In this document: one piece after another, positions 14,336-58,210 of the stretch | Numbering within the stretch: the first letter of the stretch is position 1 | How the letters are laid out: each line of letters starts with the position of its first letter | Origin: Lytechinus pictus | Lineage: Eukaryota | DNA length: 64,000 nucleotides | Direction of reading: 5' to 3' | Assembly: GCF_037042905.1 (NCBI RefSeq) | Contig: NC_087251.1 | Coordinates: 39,992,001 to 40,056,000, forward strand | Position numbers and translations under genes: made by a program | Notes under the pieces: model-generated | Seen by the model: the letters and a program-made list of their open reading frames with translations, nothing else | Told to the model about the DNA's origin: nothing | Database searches by the model: none

Positions 14336-15241
14336 AAACAAGTGGAATGCCTCTGGCCGTCTCACCTGCATCACGCGATTCAATATAGCAGCAGTGCTGA
14401 TTTTGAAAACTACTATAACTCGCACAAGATGTTCAGTGATACTTGGTTACTCTTATTTCCACGTTTTATGAACTAGACCAATACACTTATAGAGATATGA
14501 TGGCAATTCAACAAATACCCCCAACGTGGCCAAAGTTCTTTGACCTTACATGACCTTTGACCTTGATCATGTGACCTGAAACTCGCACAGGATGTTCAGT
14601 GATACTTGATTACTATTATGTCCAAGTTTTATGAACTAGACCAACACACTTTCAAATTTATGGCTGTAATTCAACAAATACCCCAATTTGGCCAAAGTTC
14701 ATTGACCCTAAATGACCTTTGACCTTGATCATGTGACCTGAAACTTGCACAGGATGTTCAGTAATACTTGATTACTATTATGTCCAAGTTTCATGAATCA
14801 GATCCATAAACTTTCAAAGTTATGATGGTAATTCAACAGATAACCCCAATTCGGCCAAAGTTCATTGACCCTAAATGACCTTTGACCTTGGTCATGTGAT
14901 GTGAAACTCATGCAGGATGTTCAGTGATACTTGATTAACCTTATGTATAAGTTTCATGAACTAGGTCCATATATTTTCTAAGTTATGATGACATTTCAAA
15001 AACTTAACCTTAGGTTAAGATTTTGATGTTGATTCCCCCAACATGGTCTAAGTTCATTGACCCTAAATGACCTTTGACCTTGGTCATGTGACATGAAACT
15101 CAGGCAGGATGTTCAGTAATACTTGATTAACCTTATGGCCAAGTTTCATGAACTAGGTCCATATACTTTCTAAGTTATGCTGTCATTTCAAAAACTTAAC
15201 CTCAGGTTAAGATTTGGTGTTGACGCCGCCGCCGCCGTCGC

Positions 15242-15273
<32 letters not shown>

Positions 15274-15324
15274 TCGGAAAAGCGGCGCCTATAGTCTCAC
15301 TCTGCTATGCAGGTGAGACAAAAA
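14336..15324 (+). mobile_element. Helentron-associated (HINE/DINE-1/pearl-like) element, family C, full length
   Basis: 5' AAACAAG, sub-terminal GTCTCACCTGCAT, about 160-bp tandem core repeats, (GCC/GTC)n microsatellite, 3' hairpin GTCTCACTCTGCTATGCAGGTGAGAC followed by an A-run. Confidence 0.75.
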
Positions 15325-23479: not shown

Positions 23480-23783
23480 CAATAGTGGTGACGACAGTCC
23501 CCGAGAAGAAGAAGGCACTACTGAAATCCCAGTTTGACGGACTGGTCCTGTTGCCATCCATGGTGACACCACTGCTCCTAGCCTGGAGCAAAATACTGGT
23601 GAAGTTCATCAGAACGTCTTCAGTAAGGCAGGAAAAGGTCTCCAGAAACTCGCTACGGATGGCCACGAGATCAAGCCGTACATTGTCTTCATGTTCTTGT
23701 TCCAGGAAATGGAACACGACAGCACCGAGGAGGAGGTAGACGAAGAGGAGGAATGTGAGGATGGAAAGTCGAAGTCCATTCAT
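23480..23783 (-). CDS. Two-pore domain K+ channel (K2P/KCNK, TALK/TREK-like), coding exon 1
   Basis: ATG at 23783 with an in-frame TGA upstream. Encodes TM1 (LTFLLFVYLLLGAVVF), a cap with Cys (FSCLT) and pore helix 1 (SNWDFSSAFFFSGTVVTTIG). Phase-1 donor G|GTAAG at 23479 splits the TIG^YG filter. Confidence 0.93.
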
Positions 23784-31895: not shown

Positions 31896-33534
31896 AACAA
31901 TTGGAGAACAGTTAGTAGCTGTTCGAATCCAACGATTTTCTTTTAAAAATATAACAAAACTGGTTGTTTTTTGTTTTGTTTTGAAAGAAATAGACCACTC
32001 TTTTCCTTTTCTTTTTGCTTTAACTAATAATTTGGTGCCTTTCAAGTCTTATCCATGGGGAGATTTTCTACAAAATCTTGCTAATTTTTTTTTTTTCATA
32101 ATAATATGGAAGTATGTGTAAAAAATTGTGTACATTTATGTGCAGTGATTTCACTCTAGAATCTGAATTTATTTCTTTTTCTTAAAAAGAGAGCTCAAAC
32201 AGGGCCTTTGCTATACAATGCATGTATACAAATCTAAGAAATGCATTGAAAACTGATAGAATATATTAAAGCTTAATTTCTATACTTCTTGATACTTGTT
32301 ATAAATTGCATACAATGCTACATGCATACATATATTTAACACTCAGTTGCTCATCCCTCCGAAAAAATTGTAATAAAATGTCCAATGTCTCTGAAATCAA
32401 AAGCTACATATTATACATGTATAACAAATTGTTGAAACAATAGAATACATAATGAATTTGTGAAACAATCAAATACATCAGAAAATAGCACACTCATATT
32501 TTTATTTGTTCATATAAAGTACAAAAGGAATGATAACTTTCATATGTAAAAAAAGACCCCCGTACATACATGTATACAATACTAAAGTTGAAAAAGAGCT
32601 TGTAATTTATTTCAGAAAAACAAAGAAATAAATTAGAAATTACAAAAACAATACTTTAAACAAATTCATTTAGGAAATCATCTACATGATGCTGTTTTGA
32701 TGCCAACTAAATTATATAAATTATCTATCATGATCACCTTCATTTGGCAAAAAAAATATTTTGCATATTAAATTTGCATAATTAATTAAAATTAATTAGA
32801 AGAAACTATTTTACACATATTAAGAAGAAAAATTACAAAGTGACATGATTACACATCAATTGAGCTTTCTTTCACCTTTCCATTGATACCTGAATTACTT
32901 CAAAGGGCTCAAAAACAAAGAAGTTAGAGCCTGTTGAAGACTTGGGTTCAAAATGGTCACAAAAATCAGTTTTGTATTCCATTGACTTTTAATACATTAA
33001 GACAATGACCACAAATTTGGATAAATATGCACAAATTAAACTGGAATAACTTTATAATTTCTTGATGAAAATTAGATTTCTTGGTATCAAAGGTTTTTTA
33101 AGAGCTTTCAAATGATACCAAATTTATTGATATTTGATGATTTTCATTTTTTTGTCACATACCTACTTACTCATAATAATATAAGAAACATTTAATTTAT
33201 CTGAAAGATTTTGTGAAATAAAAAAAAATCATGTTAAATCTTAACTCAAATTGTTAGGTGTGCAGACTTGGGGACCACGACCATACTTTTACGTGATGTA
33301 AAAGTACCGTATATGTAAAAACATTTTTTTTTATCGGAGTCAAGGCTATATATTATAGGCCTATCGCACCGGGGTGTGTAGCGGCGTGTAGCACGGGGGG
33401 AATGATCTCGCATATTATTAATTAGTCGCAACAGGTGCATCAACGTTTATTCGTTCCTTAGCACGCATTTAGCCATGGATACACAAATGGTTCACATAAA
33501 TTTCTATAAATAATTAAAAAATTCAAACAAATAC

Positions 33535-33910
33535 CTGCTATACTGTAGTACGGTTAGAGGTTCCCCTTCATCATAATAATTCAACCTGATGCAGCACCAA
33601 GTTCCCAGTAATCGCTGGTCCGAAGCGTATGGTCTATGGGTCTCGTTGTATAGTGGAGGTAATCAATTGCCCCGCTCGAGTACCCGTAGCATGGTTAAGT
33701 TAGTACGTGGAGTCTTTCGCCTTGGAAACTTTCCCAGATTGAGCCGCAGCGATCGGATTAGCCGGCTGCTTATATACGGTACGTTAACGGAGCGCCACAC
33801 CTAGCAGCAATCTTGCTAGCAACGCAACGCTAAGCGCATAACTTTACGCTGACACATTTTTTATTCCACTTTCCGTGCGTACAGGATCGAGCATTGGCTC
33901 TTTGGATTGG
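33535..33910 (-). promoter_or_regulatory. Candidate promoter and non-coding first exon of the K2P gene
   Basis: On the minus strand: TATATAAG at 33776-33769, two CCAAT boxes (33897, 33910), CpG-rich sequence with no repeat match noticed, and CAG|GTATT donor at 33534. Possible partner acceptor TATAG| at 23949-23948 upstream of the ATG. No transcript evidence. Confidence 0.4.
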
Positions 33911-35501
33911 ATTTGCTTGTTAGTGTTACACCAACTATCAGTATGTGTGCTTTCTAAATCATCTTGAGTACTTGACAAATATGAATATTGTACACGGTGG
34001 AAAAGGGAAATGAGGCGTAGCTCTTTATCTCCGCAAAAGTGTTATTACTTCATATACCCTGAAATAAGGCCACAGAGGCCCGGAGGGGGGGGGGGGGGGT
34101 GCGGCCAGGGGGGGGGGGGGGCACTTCATTGACGAGTGGATACCATGCGTGAACATGGGGTTTCGAAAAGCAAACTATAAACAAGTATTTTCCATCTTCT
34201 AAAAATGCACCAATATCATCCACATCATGACTGTTTTAGGACATACACATTCATATATAATATACAAATTAATTAGAATGGTGACAGGCCGATTTTGAGG
34301 AATTACCAAAACTGACCCTATTTAACCCTAAACACAAACGGTGTAGCCAAGCTTTATCCTTAATACCATTTAATTTAAAAATCATTAAATTTGATTAATA
34401 CAAGAAAACATATAGTAAAATTATATATCAAACAAAAGATCAAATTCTAAATTTTCTTTATATTTCATTGTTTTTGTCCAAATGTCACTTTCAATTAAGG
34501 GCAAATAATTTGGGTTATGCATTTGCATAAAACAAAGAAAATAATCTCTATTTTTTTTCATTGAATTTGAGAAGGTTACACGCAAAAATACTTTCTTATT
34601 CACTTAAATTGCAAGCCTATAGTATAAATGAGACAAAAGAAACGATAAAATTCATAAAAAATTTCCTTTCTGATATATCTTTTTTGATATTTTATTGTAA
34701 TTTTGTAAATTTCACATTTTTCACACAAATCACAGGATTAGCATTGAATTTAGCAAATTGTAATGCAATTAAACATTTTACAAAGTAAGTGGTATATTCA
34801 TCCTTTAAAATTTTCATAAAAACATTCATATGTGGTTGAATTCTTATGCAAGCTAATATATGACATAATTTGCATAATTCAATAGAAATAGTTAACAAAA
34901 AATGATTTCTTTAAAATTTCAAGCCATAAACAGCAATTTTCTCGCATTTTTGTGTTTAGTATTTCTTATGAAAGAAAACAGTTTACACATTCACATTATA
35001 CAGACACATCACATTATAATGTACCACTAATTACACAAATTATACATGTATATACTAAAAAGAATTCTCTAAAGATTAAAAAAAATGATTTTGAACCGAT
35101 GTTATTTGGTATATAGAAGGAACTGTCCTGGGGTGCTGAAAGCATGACAATGTCTATTGCATGTCAGAATTCTCTGGCAAGCAAAAAAAAATCAGCAATT
35201 TTCGGCAATGACTCTTCACTCTTCCTCTGAATTCACGATTGTCCTGAAAACAGATAATGTCGCGTTTATCAGCAACTTTGGGGGCAGTTTTGGGTCTGAA
35301 ACGGTCACTCTTTTAGGCTACTATGTTTTATATATCTTTTACATGTTTTAGCTAGTAGCCCCAAAAATATAATCACACTGAGTTCCGCTATCTGGACACA
35401 TCAATTGGCGGATGTACCATGTATACTGTTGGTGACGAATTGTGTCCAGCCTGGCGTTCCACAATATTAGCGCCGCGTTATGTTCGCAATGAATGGTGTA
35501 G

Positions 35502-35710
35502 GATCTTGTCAACTGATCATCTCTTCTACAAGATGTCGACATGATGAGATCAGAGATCTTGTCATCTGATCATCTCTTCAAAAGGATGTCGACATGACGA
35601 GATCCGGGATCTTGTCATCTCATCATCTCTTCTAAAAGATGTTGACATGATGAGATCCGGGATCTCGTCATCTGATCTTTTGCTATCATGATGTCGACGA
35701 TGTCAACATC
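35502..35710 (+). repeat. Minisatellite, unit about 53 bp
   Basis: GATCTTGTCATCTGATCATCTCTTC...GATGTCGACATGA repeated about 4 times. Confidence 0.75.
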
Positions 35711-36101
35711 TCGGTGGCACTTTTAAGCTTCCATACTATGGGGTTCGCCAGTCATAATATTAGAAGAGGTCGAGGGTCGCCAGTCAAAATAGCAAAAGAG
35801 GTTCGCCAGTCATAATAGTAGATGGGGTTCGCCAGTCATAATACACTACTCAAAAAAAGTTAAGGACCACTTTTTAAAACGTACATAAAGATTTTATACA
35901 AGGTGTTTTATTTCTGGAAATACCTCAGTACAACTGTCCTAAATGTCCTTAAACACGCTGTAATCAATTTCACGCATGGGTGGTTTCAGTTGTTGCACAA
36001 TGTCTCTCGCATCACTGCACATCCTGAAAAGTGGGCCCCGAGGGGTATCAGCTACCGACATGAAGTGGTAAAAACGAATGTCTGAGTGTCTTTCAGGCAG
36101 T

Positions 36102-36965
36102 TCAGTAACGAGTGTGACCACCTCCTGCAGCAATAACGGCTTCACAGCGCTGTCTCATGGAGCTGATGAGGCGATTGATGTCTCTGACGTCCAGTGCATC
36201 CCATGCAGCCTCCAGAGCCACACCCAGCTGCTGCAGTCCAAGTGGATGGGCTTTGAGCTGCTCGAGACTCCTCCCCATCATGTCCCAGACGTGCTCTATC
36301 GGGTTTAAGTCCGGGGACCTCGCTGGCCACTCCATACGCTCAATCCCCTGGCCCTCAAGGAACTCGGTCACCACCCTAGCTCGGTGGGCACGGGCATTGT
36401 CATCCATGAAAATGATGTTTTGTCCCACATTTTCTGCAAATGGCACCACTATAGGTTCAAGGACCTCATCCCTGTACCTCACTCCTGTCATTGCTCCCCC
36501 TGGGACCACGTAGAGACGAGTACGGTTGGCGTAGGTGATGCCTCCCCACACCATGACGCTGCCTCCCCCATAACGGTCATGTTCTGCAATACAGGGGTCT
36601 GCAAATCTCTCTCCTGGTCGCCTCCAGACTCTCGAACGTCCATCATTGTGGTCAAGGGAAAATCTGCTCTCATCTGTGAACAGAACTCTACGCCATTGCT
36701 GTCTGGTCCATCTGACATGCTCCCAGGCCCAGTTGAGACGAATTCTTCTGTGAGCAGGGGTGAGTGGGACACACTGAGCTGGCCGTCTGGCATGCATATT
36801 GGCTCTGTGAAGTCGGTTACGGATTGTTTGAGTGGAAACAATCACTCCAGTTGCTGCAGCGAAGTCATTGTTGAGGCGGCGTGCACTATCTCTACAATCA
36901 ACAACTTGCTGACAATAGCAATGCCAAGATACAGCTGTCCAGAATGCCATCAAACACAATGACAT
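36102..36965 (-). pseudogene. Inverted, N-terminally truncated copy of the Tc1 transposase (frame still open)
   Basis: Matches the + ORF from SARRLNN to the stop except V/M and N/K. The frame stays open into the spacer, with an ATG at 36965. Confidence 0.8.
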
Positions 36966-37089
36966 CAATTTCACACATGCAGTTCTTTCATGATGTCTCT
37001 GGCATCATTGCAGTGGGCCATAAGACAAGTGTCTTCCAAAGCATTTTCCGTCTTTAGTCTGTACAATCAACAACTTGCCTACAACAGCA

Positions 37090-38118
37090 ATGCCAAGACA
37101 CCACCTAAGTGAAACAGATGTAGCCAGAGCCCTAGGGATGCTGGAAGCTGGCCTCAGTCAGCGAAGAGTAGCCAGAATGATGGGCGTGTCACACAGTGTC
37201 ATTAGCAGAGCAAATCAAAGACACCGAGAGACAGGGCTATACTCCGAGAGACCCCGCAGTGGCCGACCAGTTTCGACAACCCCTAGAGATGATCGCTACT
37301 TGACGAATCTCAGCCTCCGCAACCGCTTTCACAGTGCACGCCGCCTCAACAATGACTTCGCTGCAGCAACTGGAATGATTGTTTCCACTCAAACAATCCG
37401 TAACCGACTTCACAGAGCCAATATGCATGCCAGACGGCCAGCTCAGTGTGTCCCACTCACCCCTGCTCACAGAAGAATTCGTCTCAACTGGGCCTGGGAG
37501 CATGTCAGATGGACCAGACAGCAATGGCGTAGAGTTCTGTTCACAGATGAGAGCAGATTTTCCCTTGACCACAATGATGGACGTTCGAGAGTCTGGAGGC
37601 GACCAGGAGAGAGATTTGCAGACCCCTGTATTGCAGAACATGACCGTTATGGGGGAGGCAGTGTCATGGTGTGGGGAGGCATCACCTACGCCAAACGTAC
37701 TCGTCTCTACGTGGTCCCAGGGGGAGCAATGACAGGAGTGAGGTACAGGGATGAGGTCCTTGAACCTATAGTGGTGCCATTTGCAGAAAATGTGGGACAA
37801 AACATCATTTTCATGGATGACAATGCCCGTGCCCACCGAGCTAGGGTGGTGACCGAGTTCCTTGAGGGCCAGGGGATTGAGCGTATGGAGTGGCCAGCGA
37901 GGTCCCCGGACTTAAACCCGATAGAGCACGTCTGGGACATGATGGGGAGGAGTCTCGAGCAGCTCAAAGCCCATCCACTTGGACTGCAGCAGCTGGGTGT
38001 GGCTCTGGAGGCTGCATGGGATGCACTGGACGTCAGAGACATCAATCGCCTCATCAGCTCCATGAGACAGCGCTGTGAAGCCGTTATTGCTGCAGGAGGT
38101 GGTCACACTCGTTACTGA
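37090..38118 (+). CDS. Tc1-family DD34E transposase, intact, 342 aa
   Basis: N-terminal HTH, RSGRP linker, WRRVLFTDESRF, MVWGGI, FMDDNARAH and WPARSPDLNPIEHVW; 34 residues lie between the second D and the E. Confidence 0.95.
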   Translation: MPRHHLSETDVARALGMLEAGLSQRRVARMMGVSHSVISRANQRHRETGLYSERPRSGRPVSTTPRDDRYLTNLSLRNRFHSARRLNNDFAAATGMIVSTQTIRNRLHRANMHARRPAQCVPLTPAHRRIRLNWAWEHVRWTRQQWRRVLFTDESRFSLDHNDGRSRVWRRPGERFADPCIAEHDRYGGGSVMVWGGITYAKRTRLYVVPGGAMTGVRYRDEVLEPIVVPFAENVGQNIIFMDDNARAHRARVVTEFLEGQGIERMEWPARSPDLNPIEHVWDMMGRSLEQLKAHPLGLQQLGVALEAAWDALDVRDINRLISSMRQRCEAVIAAGGGHTRY

Positions 38119-40274
38119 ACTGCCTGAAAGACACTCAGACATTCGTTTTTACCACTTCATGTCGGTAGCTGATACCCCTCGGGGCCCACTTTTCAGGATG
38201 TGCAGTGATGCGAGAGACATTGTGCAACAACTGAAACCACCCATGCGTGAAATTGATTACAGCGTGTTTAAGGACATTTAGGACAGTTGTACTGAGGTAT
38301 TTCCAGAAATAAAACACCTTGTATAAAATCTTTATGTACGTTTTAAAAAGTGGTCCTTAACTTTTTTTGAGTAGTGTATTAGAAGAGGTCGAGGGTCGCC
38401 AGTCATATTAGCAGAAGAGGTTCACCAGTCATAATAGTAGATGGGGTTCGCCAGTCATAATATTAGAAGAGGTCGAGGGTCGCCAGTCAAAATAGCAGAA
38501 GAGGTTCGCCAGTCATAATTAATAGTATAGATGGGGGTCGCTAGTCATAATATTAGAAGAGATCGAGGGTCGCCAGTCAAAATAGCAGAAGAGGTTCGCC
38601 GGTCATAATAGTAGATGAGGGTCGCTAGTCATGAACAAGATGCGTATGTAGCTGAATAAGCACTGCAAGCGCGAAGAGCGAGCAAAATTTTCTAATCTAC
38701 ATTAATTTCTAGCCTGATCGAAAAGGGACCTGTTAAGAACTGTTTGCAGTTAGCCATGAAGACGATAAATATTTCAAATAATGCGACCGTGGATCACGAG
38801 CTGAAAATTTTAGTAATTACGACCTAAAAAATGACATTCTAAGCACTTTTTGTATTCGTGAACAGGAAAGGTAGTATCACAAAACAATGCGAGCGCGAAA
38901 CACCAGCAGAAAAAAAAATTGAGGTTTATAGACTTAAAAATGATATACGCTATTCATGTTTTGTAAATCATGAAAAATAATGATTGGTATAATTGGTTAT
39001 ATTTTTACCATAGTAAAACGAGAGCGAAACGCGAGCAAATTTTTTTTTGATATTCTGATATGAAAATTTGATAATTTACGCATGTTTTGAATAAAGAACC
39101 AGCTGCGTATTAGAACATCAGCGTGATTTATATTTAGACCTAGTATATGGGCATTCTAAATACATTTTTTATCATGAAAATGAATAATGCGAGCGCGAAG
39201 TGCAAGCTGAAAACGTTTAATATTCCAAACTGAAAAAAGGGTCAATTTAAGCATTATTTCAAGCACCGCATAGGAAAAATAATTGTAAAGTGAATATGGA
39301 TCGCAGTTAATAAATGAGGCGAGCGCGGAGCACGAGCTGATGTTTGTTGGTTATTATTTTGACCAAGGACCGGAACATATAAGGACAGTTTGTCATCATG
39401 ACTGTCTTCATATTCCTCTACCTAAGCGTGAGATGAAACTTGTCCATATATCCTGAAAAAGGGACAATTTAATTATATGGAATTCATGAAAAATTAATCT
39501 TATATATTAATCTAATGAGCCTAATGATATCGAGCGCGAAATTTGTTGATATATTAAGGTCTGAAATTGGACATTCTAAGAAATTCGTAATCCTGAATAC
39601 TATAGGATGCATGGGTGAATATATTTTCAATAATATTAATGCAAGCGCAAATCGCGAGCCGAATGTCATTAAAATGGGATTTTGAGTATATAATAAAAAT
39701 ACAGAGGTATACATATCTCACCATTTAAAATACGAGCGCGCAGTGCTAGCTGATAGGTTTTGACAATCAGACCTGAAAAGGGAAAGGCATTTTGAGAACT
39801 TTATGGAATACACTTATTAGATAATAGCTACTTAACTAACCAAATAATACGAGCGCCCAGCGTGAGCTGAAAATGTTGACACTCAGACTATAACGGACGT
39901 TTTACACAACACTTTTTTAAAATCAATTCGTAAGTCCAAAAAAAATGAAAGCTCGTTGTCCGAGCTGAAATACATTTTGTATATTGACTGCAAAAAATAA
40001 TAAGCAGCCTATTGAGCAAGATTATGTATCTCATCACATGCAATGCGAACGCGAAACGCGAGCAATGAAAAATTTTCCATACTTTTTCATTAAATTTTCC
40101 AAGGCATCCCCTCACCTTATTTTATTCACTCGTTTCCTCCTCTTTTTTTCCTCTTCCTTTTTCTCCTCTCTTCCCCCCTTTTTTGCTCCACCCCCTGGAT
40201 CGGCCTATAAATGGCAACCCTCTGCTAATATTATGGCTGGCAATCTTCTTTTCCCGATATGACTGGTGACCCTA

Positions 40275-41797: not shown

Positions 41798-42067
41798 ATG
41801 GCAACCTCCCAGTTCATCATTCCAAACGAAGTACCTTTTGTGAATCTAGAATGCAAGACGGCATTCGAGTGTCTGTCGAGCAAGGAAAAAAAATATGCTC
41901 ACTACATTGGGAAAGCGGCATGGAGTGGTGGCCTTATCTGTCTTTTCCAAACCAGTCCAGAGTCTCCATTGATATTTCTGCTATTGCAGAAACTGTTTAA
42001 AGGGCAACCAGTAAATGAATTGAAGTCAGCTGCCATAGAGAAAGGGATCATAAAAGATGAAGTAGAG
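41798..42067 (+). CDS. DPP3: Dipeptidyl peptidase 3, coding exon 1
   Basis: MATSQFIIPNE...LECKTAFECL...AAWSGGLICLFQTSPESP matches the DPP3 N-terminus; donor GTACAG at 42068, phase 0. Confidence 0.93.
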
Positions 42068-54045: not shown

Positions 54046-55003
54046 TTTTTGTCTCACCTGCATAGCAGAGTGAGACTATAGGCGCCGCTTTTCCGACGGC
54101 GACGGCGGCGGCGGCGTCAACACCAAATCTTAACCTGAGGTTAAGTTTTTTAAATGACAGCATAACTTAGAAAGTATATGGACCTAGTTCATGAAACTAG
54201 GCCATAAGGTTAATCAAGTATTACTGAACATCCTGCCTGAGTTTCATGTCACATGACCAAGGTCAAAGGTCATTTAGGGTCAATGAACTTAGACCATGTT
54301 GGGGGAATCAACATCAAAATCTTAACCTAAGGTTAAGTTTTTGAAATGTCATCATAACTTAGAAAATATATGGACCTAGTTCATGAAACTTATACATAAG
54401 GTTAATCAAGTATCACTGAACATCCTGCATGAGTTTCACATCACATGACCAAGGTCAAAGGTCATTTAGGGTCAATGAACTTTGGCCGAATTGGGGTATT
54501 TGTTGAATTACCATCATAACTTTGAAAGTTTATGGATCTGATTCATGAAACTTGGACATAATAGTAATCAAGTATTACTGAACATCCTGTGCAAGTTTCA
54601 GGTCACATGATCAAGGTCAAAGGTCATTTAGGGTCAATGAACTTTGGCCAAATTGGGGTATTTGTTGAATTACAGCCATAAATTTGAAAGTGTGTTGGTC
54701 TAGTTCATAAAACTTGGACATAATAGTAATCAAGTATCACTGAACATCCTGTGCGAGTTTCAGGTCACATGATCAAGGTCAAAGGTCATGTAAGGTCAAA
54801 GAACTTTGGCCACGTTGGGGGTATTTGTTGAATTGCCATCATATCTCTATAAGTGTATTGGTCTAGTTCATAAAACGTGGAAATAAGAGTAACCAAGTAT
54901 CACTGAACATCTTGTGCGAGTTATAGTAGTTTTCAAAATCAGCACTGCTGCTATATTGAATCGCGTGATGCAGGTGAGACGGCCAGAGGCATTCCACTTG
55001 TTT
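54046..55003 (-). mobile_element. HINE-like family C, full length, nearly identical to 14336-15324
   Basis: Reverse complement of the 14.3-kb copy; differs mainly by a shorter GCC microsatellite. Confidence 0.8.
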
Positions 55004-55692: not shown

Positions 55693-58210
55693 CACAATTT
55701 GGAAAAAGTCTTGCAGACAATATACCATTAACACAAAAGAAATTTACGGATTTCATTCACCAACCAAACGCTAATTCTTTATTTTTAGTGCCAGTACATA
55801 GGAATGATATAATAGAAATAATGAACAACTTAAAAAAATATAAAAAAGCCGTTGTCACGATGCACAGTGGGCCAGAATGAGTTGAAAGTGCGCCAAAATT
55901 ATATTCCGTGTTATATTTTTACTTTAACATGTTGATTAAGGGTAATTTTGGGCGTAGAATCGACTGAACATAATTTAAAGCCGATATAACGTCACTTTGA
56001 TACCAAATTTTGATTGGCTACTTAAAACCTATCTGTGAAAAGACAAATTACGCTAAACAATGTGTAGTATATAAACTTTGTATTATGTGTTACTTTAAGA
56101 TTGACCAGAGTGAATGTTGCTTTATGCTTCTCACATGCCTAAAAAGTGTGGATGAGATCCTCAAAATAATGTTATGGCATCAAAATGATCATTAGATTAA
56201 AAAAATACTTTAAAATCTGAAAAATGTTAACCGTGCTTTATCAAGCGGCGTAGACTTGGGTAAAACGCAGAGTATATAACACCACGAATGTTTTACTATG
56301 AGGAGGGTTTTTGGCTGAAATGATTCTACAAGTAACTTTTATCTCTGGAAGAGGGGGGGGGGGTAGCCCTAATATGCGTGATCAACCTTTATTTTGTTTG
56401 CATTAAGCCCGGAATTCATGTCATTTTCATGAAATGGAAGGGGAATCGTCCTCGCCGTGCAAAAAGTAACGGCAATGTACACCCCACACGGTGCGCTGCA
56501 ATGACTGCGCGGTATAAAAATGACCGTTTTTGAACAGGTTTTGGGGGTGTTGTGTCAAGTAAAATCGGCTCTAACATGAAAACGGTCAAAAACGGGCAGC
56601 TAAATTTGGTATCGCCTTAAAGCTTAGACATCTAGCAAAATGATGATGATAGAATTTAAACGGAAATCCACGGAAATCCAAACGTTTCTAATGTAAATGC
56701 AAAAAACATGGATTATCATCCTATTTCGAGGAACAATTATCCTATAAACCTCCTGAAATGTGTCTTTTATCTAATTTGAACCCTTTCACACGAAAAAAAG
56801 AATATATCACGATTATGTGGGTGCCATTTCAGATTCCTACATGAAAAACCCCCTGTGAAATGGCCTGTTTTTCAACTAGGTTGTCATATGCATGGCATTT
56901 CGCAAAATGTCACATTTTACGATTTGAGGTAGAAAATTAACAACCTTTATGCAAATTCCCGAATGAAATATTTTGCTGAAGTATTCTTCAAAGTGTTGTC
57001 TTTCAGCTGGGCATGACAAAAATTAAAAATCTGAAATTGCCCAAAATGACTTTTGGCGCACTTTTGTTTCGCCCCGGCCCACTGTGCGATGGTATTGACA
57101 ATATTTTATTAAAGAATGTTACAGAATATATTGTTGATCCATTAGTATACATGTACATATTTAATCTGTCTTCAAGAAATGGTGTCGTGCCTGACAATAT
57201 GAAAATATCTAAGATAATACCAGTGCACAAAAAAAGAGAGAAGATTAATGTATGTAGCTATAGACCGATAGCTTTATTGCCCACTTTGTCTAAAGTTACG
57301 GAAAGGGTGATCTATCCAAGATTATTAAAATTTTTGAATGAATATAAAGTAATTTCTGATTTTCAAATTGGATTTCGCAAAAAATGTAGTACATCTCATG
57401 CCACACTCGCATTTATTGACAAAATATCTAAAGCTATTAATAACTTTGAACATACAATAGGTGTTTTTTTGGACCTCTTCAAGGCCTTAAAATCATGAAA
57501 TACTTCTCTACAAACTTGAAAATTACGGAGTTCGTGGGAAGGCCTTGGAGTGGTTCAGAAACTACGTCACAAATCGTAAGCATAAATGAAAAAAATTATT
57601 CTCTACAAAATGTTAACTAGGTTGTTCCCCAAGGCAGCGTCCTGGACCCACTTTTATTTATAATCTATATTAATGACAGCTAGAACTCTTCTGAAATATT
57701 ATCTTATGTCCTTTTTGCTGATGATTCAAATGTGCTCTAATCTCATCGTAACCCCGATATTTTACTTAATGTACTGAACACGGAGCTGGGTAAGTTGGTA
57801 CAATGGATTAGGGCTAACAAATTTTGCGATGAATGTACAAAAAAACTAAATGCATGCTTTTTAGCAATTCTTTAGAAAAATTGCCATTTACTATTAAACT
57901 GGACAATATAGACATTGAAGTTATTACTACAACAAAATTTTTAGGTCTCATAATAGACAAATTATCTTGGAATACACACATTGACTTTATATGTCGTACA
58001 TGCTTTATTCAACATTAATTTTACCATATCTAAATTATAGGACGGTTGTCTTTGGAAATACACACTCAACCTGCCTTGATAGAATAATTGCATTTACAAA
58101 AGAAGGCGCTGCGTGTTATTTTGAACTTGTCCTAGAGATCCCATACATATCACTTGTCTTTCAAAAATAAAATTCTAAAAATTAAAACTCTGTACCAATA
58201 TAACCTAGGT
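55693..58210 (+). pseudogene. Decayed CR1/L2-group LINE reverse transcriptase, split by the Transib element
   Basis: YRPIALLPTLSKVTER, QIGFRKKCST, VFLDLFKA, VPQGSVLGPLLFIIYIND and LFADD motifs with stops and frameshifts. HD^GID is rejoined when the Transib is removed. Confidence 0.85.
55863..57086. mobile_element. Non-autonomous Transib-type transposon with RSS-like ends
   Basis: CACAGTGGGCC...GGCCCACTGTG termini; 5-bp TSD CGATG (55858-62, 57087-91); AAAGTGCGCCAAAA at equal distance from both ends; no transposase ORF. Confidence 0.85.

Follow-up and report, generated by a model that had tools for sequence, protein, structure and literature searches.

The window analysed here is a 64,000-nucleotide stretch of the Lytechinus pictus genome (NC_087251.1, positions 39,992,001 to 40,056,000), in which a Tc1 transposon lies between the genes for K2P and DPP3. 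The element (35844-38376 in window positions, 2,533 bp) consists of two outer arms and a central spacer of 445 bp (36888-37332). As the initial annotation had noticed, the arms are reverse complements of each other, and alignment places their identity at 99.7% over 1,044 bp, with three mismatches (36525/37695, 36558/37662 and 36845/37375). The arms start at base 244 of the transposase coding sequence (CDS), within codon 82, and contain 76% of it, which agrees with the three quarters claimed beforehand. A Tc1 element has distinct left and right ends, with terminal inverted repeats (TIRs) outside the CDS; this copy, from a young DD34E Tc1 family, has two right ends.

We then examined the insertion site. 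The dinucleotide TA stands on both sides of the element, as in a Tc1 target-site duplication, and the target is palindromic (TAA-TA-TTA). When the flanks are fused over a single TA, the resulting empty-site string of 40 bases has two other exact matches in the window, at 35740 and 38443, and, when extended to 48 bases, it has one exact match elsewhere in the window, at 38439. Since the string matches other units of the minisatellite, the repeats keep their register and orientation across the insertion, and the element sits cleanly in an otherwise unbroken array. The clean TA duplication inside a same-orientation minisatellite, also part of the initial annotation, is therefore upheld. The coordinates of the features are collected in Table 1.

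Table 1. Features of the two-right-ended Tc1 element and its insertion site (window positions).
Feature	Position	Strand	Remark
Host minisatellite, left part	35740-35843	+	
Left copy of the TA target-site duplication	35842-35843		From sequence; the empty-site string equals intact minisatellite units
Left arm	35844-36887	-	Inverted copy of the last 1,044 bp of the element (right terminus, 3′ untranslated region, codons 82-342)
Outer 34 bp of the terminus	35844-35877		Likely the true short TIR common to both ordinary ends, judged from contig ends
Predicted frame of 287 amino acids	36102-36965	-	Transposase residues 82-342, preceded by 26 spacer-derived residues present by chance
Fold-back junction	36887-36889		One non-matching base at 36888; microhomology of at most 1-2 bp
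5′ unit of 169 bp	36889-37057	+	Kept from the ordinary left end
Tc1 transposase open reading frame (ORF)	37090-38118	+	Open, 342 amino acids; HTH, HTH_Tnp_Tc3_2 and DDE_3 domains; DD34E
Right arm	37333-38376	+	The element's own right part; derived letter at all 3 arm mismatches
AATAAA/ATTAAA, candidate poly(A) signal	38308-38313	+	The sole plus-strand one inside the element; putative function
Right copy of the TA target-site duplication	38377-38378		
Host minisatellite, right part	38377-38632	+	Orientation and register as in the left part

The transposase had been called intact, and the ORF is indeed open over its whole length, with 34 residues between the catalytic D244 and E279, the spacing of a DD34E Tc1 enzyme. 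The DDE_3 domain is matched in Pfam with E=2.5e-19, and the N-terminal DNA-binding region is of the paired-like helix-turn-helix type (HTH_38, residues 3-40; HTH_Tnp_Tc3_2, residues 68-139). The closest solved relative is Sleeping Beauty (E=5.9e-28), and relatives at 98-99% identity occur in ENA and Logan records. The closest database relative (P0123) differs at four residues (V96M, R136W, N202K and E293K); at the first three positions, which were tallied among 120 relatives, M96 and K202 occur in none and W136 in two. With part of the 5′ region lost and four amino acid changes, this copy may or may not make an active enzyme, as judged from its sequence. A transposase from the sea spider Nymphon striatum (P0121) is 89% identical over 337 residues to the product of 37090-38115, and runs of five coded organisms contain 0.64-0.75 of the words of the stretch. 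These two observations hint at a recent horizontal spread among marine invertebrates, contamination being another possible cause.

We compared the element with contigs, and contigs only, from four public sequencing runs out of 24 listed, aligned to 35300-37332; in 16 of the 24, at least half of the words sampled from this interval are present, under five coded organism labels as well as metagenomes. Such contigs drop rare variants, and their depth gives neither copy number nor expression. The four runs may come from other species, and the flank at 35300-35575 differs from the window identically in three of them. In all four, a contig runs directly from 37332 to 37333, which is the ordinary join. 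No contig of the four joins 36887 to 36888, although absence there is not proof of absence, and none joins the left flank to the element. In runs X1 and X2, a contig of 1,498 letters spans the right part and the spacer. It differs at two positions in the arm and matches 36889-37332, in the spacer, without a difference in both runs; immediately before 36889, it carries 14 letters that prolong a 5′ direct repeat, not the arm. Of the ordinary left end, the inner part survives as the spacer. Another contig, 193-196 letters long and present in three runs, starts and stops on the same direct repeat and reads as a probable additional 5′ unit of about 166 bp. In X1, a contig that is found in pieces in X13 follows the outer terminus to 35877, continues with 86 divergent bases and then resembles 35965-36038, which we read as the probable ordinary left end. 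Contigs branch at the edge of the outer terminus, and the joint 35877-35965 is present in X1 and X13.

Hence, pieced together from contig ends and lengths rather than from any single contig, the parent element would be about 1.7-1.9 kb long, with a shared terminus of 34 bp and an imperfect inner repeat, and about 240-410 bp of the left end would be missing from the fold-back copy. The family is near-identical across the four runs but ordinary in structure, with another 5′ end. TIRs of 1 kb as the normal structure of the family were considered and rejected, because the contigs follow the ordinary join without the fold-back junction. Beyond these runs, protein-seeded scans found no copy of the family in metagenome contigs, where 14 loci were recovered at 28-44% identity, nor in prokaryote genomes, which gave 9 weak partial matches, and there was no match in viral contigs. 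The longest arm in the 10 metagenome loci (of the 14) scanned for inverted repeats was 145 nt, a weak control in view of their distant relationship. It belongs to the distant Tc1 locus L003, where an inverted copy of part of the CDS (1999-2143 versus 2778-2922, 94% complementary) lies just outside the left end.

Within the spacer, the sequence 36889-36932 is repeated at 37058-37101, across the start codon, and 36930-37012 resembles the inner right end (72%; alignment score of 62, compared to 30 for the best of 300 shuffles). The family 5′ region (36889-37101) appears to be a tandem array, with units of about 166-169 bp that each resemble the inner right end. Each unit ends with a copy of the start-codon context, and a decoy ATG at 36921 opens a frame of 13 codons. 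The number of these 5′ units may vary between family copies.

Neither side of the fold-back junction is a transposon terminus, and the junction as an insertion site for a transposon end was rejected on this ground. The ten bases 36883-36892 at the junction are a near-match to the element's own first nine bases, a resemblance that could be fortuitous or stem from a short third template switch.

The letters of the arms bear on how the structure arose. At 36254 and 36725, which underlie K293 and W136, respectively, all depth in the four runs shows another letter, and both arms carry the letter of the window. These are the only two places at which the left arm departs from the contigs of the four runs. 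At the three positions where the arms differ, the left arm equals the contigs in every case, so that none of the mismatches is derived on the left arm. That both arms share two letters absent from the runs fits one arm having been copied from the other. The simplest account of these letters is that two changes came first, that one arm was then copied from the other, and that three further changes followed later. We therefore consider, with a probability of about 0.72, that the left end was replaced by an inverted copy of the 1,044-bp right end, likely by template switching during the repair of an excision break, and that the element is likely still mobile and probably no dedicated silencer. 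Two paths of repair could produce this structure. In one, the newly made repair strand would fold back on itself at the 36888 junction and then anneal through the terminus; in the other, the 34 bp common to both termini would let repair synthesis switch from the left one to the right one. Either path would copy one arm from the other and drop about 240-410 bp of the left end.

The arms could instead stem from two separate copies lying head to head, which were joined by a deletion or by aberrant transposition, the composite then moving as a unit into the minisatellite. Such a route has been proposed for the Rpmar49 and Rpmar17 elements (PMC4678618), and in so young a family, two copies with just 3 differences in 1,044 sites would be possible. 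All three differences also fall on one arm, but a 3:0 split has a chance probability of 0.25. Moreover, the two letters shared by the arms were unseen in all four runs, and with no transposon end on either side, the fold-back junction is not an insertion junction; we regard a two-copy origin as unlikely.

As to the mobility of the element, the family transposase could still pair two identical right ends. Right-right lineages of rearranged mariner elements have transposed (PMC4678618), and Mos1 with two right ends transposed 26-fold better in vitro than with its natural pair (PMC4505599). The initial annotation had offered mobility as an alternative to silencing by a hairpin RNA. The two full right ends, the clean TA duplication and the transposition of the right-right mariner lineages stand in its favour, and a probably mobile two-right-ended element is the better reading of the two.

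Several points weigh against the replacement of the left end and its likely mobility. Mboumar-9 with two right ends performed about three times worse than its natural pair (PMC4505599), and, with Mos1 and Mboumar-9 opposite, two right ends may help or hinder this element. The two letters shared by the arms may be the norm of the family in this host, which would weaken the case for self-copying, and the mechanism is not uniquely readable from one junction. Lastly, no contig of the runs spans the fold-back junction or the insertion site, which leaves the element without independent confirmation.

The same absence from the contigs of the four runs would be in keeping with an assembly artefact, in which a fold-back chimeric read or a collapsed repeat made the inverted arm, and long inverted repeats are a known artefact of long reads. 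However, the minisatellite junction is restored when the element is removed, which argues against an assembly chimera. The inversion ends exactly at the transposon end, the two flanks differ from each other but agree in register and orientation, and the arms differ at three sites. The junction also deletes part of the left end, which is not expected for a simple fold-back read. An artefact is therefore very improbable.

End replacement with long TIRs is already in print for Tc1/mariner elements, and the element resembles these published derivatives in that one end is the inverted other end together with its adjoining internal sequence. In Rpmar49 and Rpmar17 of Rhodnius prolixus, the 5′ part is likewise replaced by the inverted 3′ part, giving long TIRs that hold transposase sequence; there are 13 transposed copies of Rpmar49, and 227 rearranged ones of Rpmar17, whose breakpoints vary (PMC4678618). 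In contrast, these are non-autonomous mariner elements, nearly all below 1 kb and one above 1,700 bp (PMC4678618), whereas the present element is a DD34E Tc1, is longer than its parent at 2,533 bp, and has 1,044-bp arms and a whole ORF. In Goblin, a miniature inverted-repeat transposable element (MITE) derived from Ozma in Aedes aegypti, the right subterminal sequence was copied inverted to the left, leaving a one-base scar at the junction, and a template switch in gap repair has been proposed, as is suggested here (PMC3814204). A scarred template-switch junction is thus known, but Goblin is only 213 bp long, with 54-bp TIRs, no ORF and a microhomology of 6 bp, compared to at most 2 bp in the present case (PMC3814204). 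The Drosophila mariner MITEs Dromar7, Dromar11, Dromar28 and Dromar36 also show end replacement and unusually long TIRs and then transposed; unlike here, the 3′ part was replaced by the 5′ part and the ORF was lost (PMC4161770).

The known silencing loci of maize offer a second comparison. Mu killer (PMC3440606) and the Ac composite insertions (10.1101/2020.01.07.897926) contain an inverted transposase duplication of about 1-1.3 kb, with one end doubled, and for the Ac insertions, double-stranded RNA (dsRNA) and small interfering RNA (siRNA) have been shown (10.1101/2020.01.07.897926). A long inverted duplication of transposon sequence is also present here. In Mu killer, however, the end that was duplicated is the mudrA promoter end, and there is an internal deletion (PMC3440606), so that its anatomy is that of two promoter-side ends with an internally deleted transposase; our element has two 3′ ends and the whole ORF. 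Mu killer is, furthermore, defined by its transcripts and dominant silencing (PMC3440606), while our element is known from sequence alone. In summary, the element resembles the published end-replacement derivatives but, with its 2,533 bp and its 342-residue ORF, fails their short, non-coding feature, and it has the structural feature of the killer loci only.

We next considered the flanking genes. K2P is on the minus strand, with its ATG at 23783, 12.1 kb from the element, and DPP3 is on the plus strand, with its ATG at 41798, 3.4 kb from the element; strands and start positions are those expected from the divergent 5′ ends described in the initial annotation. The K2P channel shares 98% identity with a record from L. 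pictus and 88% with L. variegatus. A CpG-rich patch at 33,250-34,000 contains a minus-strand splice donor at 33537 and is likely the non-coding first exon of K2P, 10 kb above its ATG, which would place the K2P promoter likely about 1.8 kb from the element. Another CpG-rich patch lies directly before the DPP3 ATG.

The initial annotation had proposed a candidate killer locus, at which read-through transcription would give about 1 kb of transposase dsRNA. In this reading, the dsRNA from a transcript across both arms would be diced and silence the family in trans. Either strand could indeed fold arm to arm, with 1,041 and 1,042 of 1,044 pairs, into a hairpin with a predicted energy of about -2,400 kcal/mol and a longest perfect stretch of 681 bp. 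A transcript entering from either side would reach its first AATAAA/ATTAAA near the end of the second arm, at 38308 on the plus strand and at 35912 on the minus strand, where the mirror hexamer occupies 35907-35912. However, about one such hexamer is expected by chance per 2.5 kb (an estimate), so their scarcity is weak support. Inward transcription from the ends of Sleeping Beauty is in print (PMC3343047), and Mu killer (PMC3440606) and the Ac composite insertions (10.1101/2020.01.07.897926) are precedents in maize. Against these points, K2P and DPP3 are both transcribed away from the element, transcription from a promoter of the element's own would begin in the spacer and cover just one arm, and the arms are without the 5′ promoter region, with the ORF kept intact. 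The hairpin would need several-kb upstream antisense transcripts or inward transcription from a right end. Amphioxus, another deuterostome, yielded no small RNAs of the siRNA type (PMC6396948). The long-hairpin model has been questioned even for Mu killer (PMC3440606). Piwi and Dicer are mentioned for sea urchins (PMC10742642), and no literature on hairpin-derived siRNA silencing in sea urchins was found. Hairpin RNA would be a side effect only, arising if transcription ran through both arms; with neighbours that diverge, this is unlikely here. We consider a dedicated killer locus a highly doubtful reading.

Repression could also act at the protein level, if outward transcription from the spacer expressed the 287-residue frame and its product poisoned transposase complexes. 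Truncated transposases act as repressors in other families. An in-frame ATG at 36965 begins this open, predicted frame, which lacks the first helix-turn-helix but keeps the full DDE domain. This ATG, however, arises by chance from antisense sequence of the ordinary 5′ unit. We regard such a repressor as barely credible.

A broader version of the silencing model applies to the family rather than to this locus. Repair after excision would yield mobile right-right copies with kilobase hairpins, and those that are transcribed would give rise to small RNAs that silence the family, so that the Tc1 family would build its own silencers. Transcription would perhaps start from the inward-facing ends, hence at any site, including this one. 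We regard this possibility as speculative and unlikely. If true, such self-made silencers would be the equivalent of Mu killer in an animal, while still coding for the enzyme being silenced.

Small non-autonomous elements are known to arise by end replacement; the form described here grows and keeps the whole transposase. Among openly licensed papers and preprints, supplements excluded, no publication was found on a Tc1 element with kilobase arms and a whole ORF. Three quarters of a transposase as a near-perfect inverted repeat would represent an early stage of end replacement, before shortening. If such copies are common, this young family of a laboratory sea urchin would be well suited to testing whether hairpins made by a new DNA transposon itself are how an animal host first recognises it. 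For such a test, the present copy, which lies in intergenic DNA between divergently oriented genes, would be a suboptimal choice.

Two further features of the window were observed. Near-identical repeat copies in opposite orientation lie 39 kb apart, at 14336-15324 and 54046-55003 (three mismatches and two gaps in 989 columns). The repeat has internal units of 163 and 192 bp and brackets the 5′ parts of K2P and DPP3, and older copies are found at about 24.9, 30.4-31.2 and 55.3 kb. Finally, 56980-57498 holds a frame of 172 amino acids, which resembles a fragment of a long interspersed nuclear element (LINE) reverse transcriptase.

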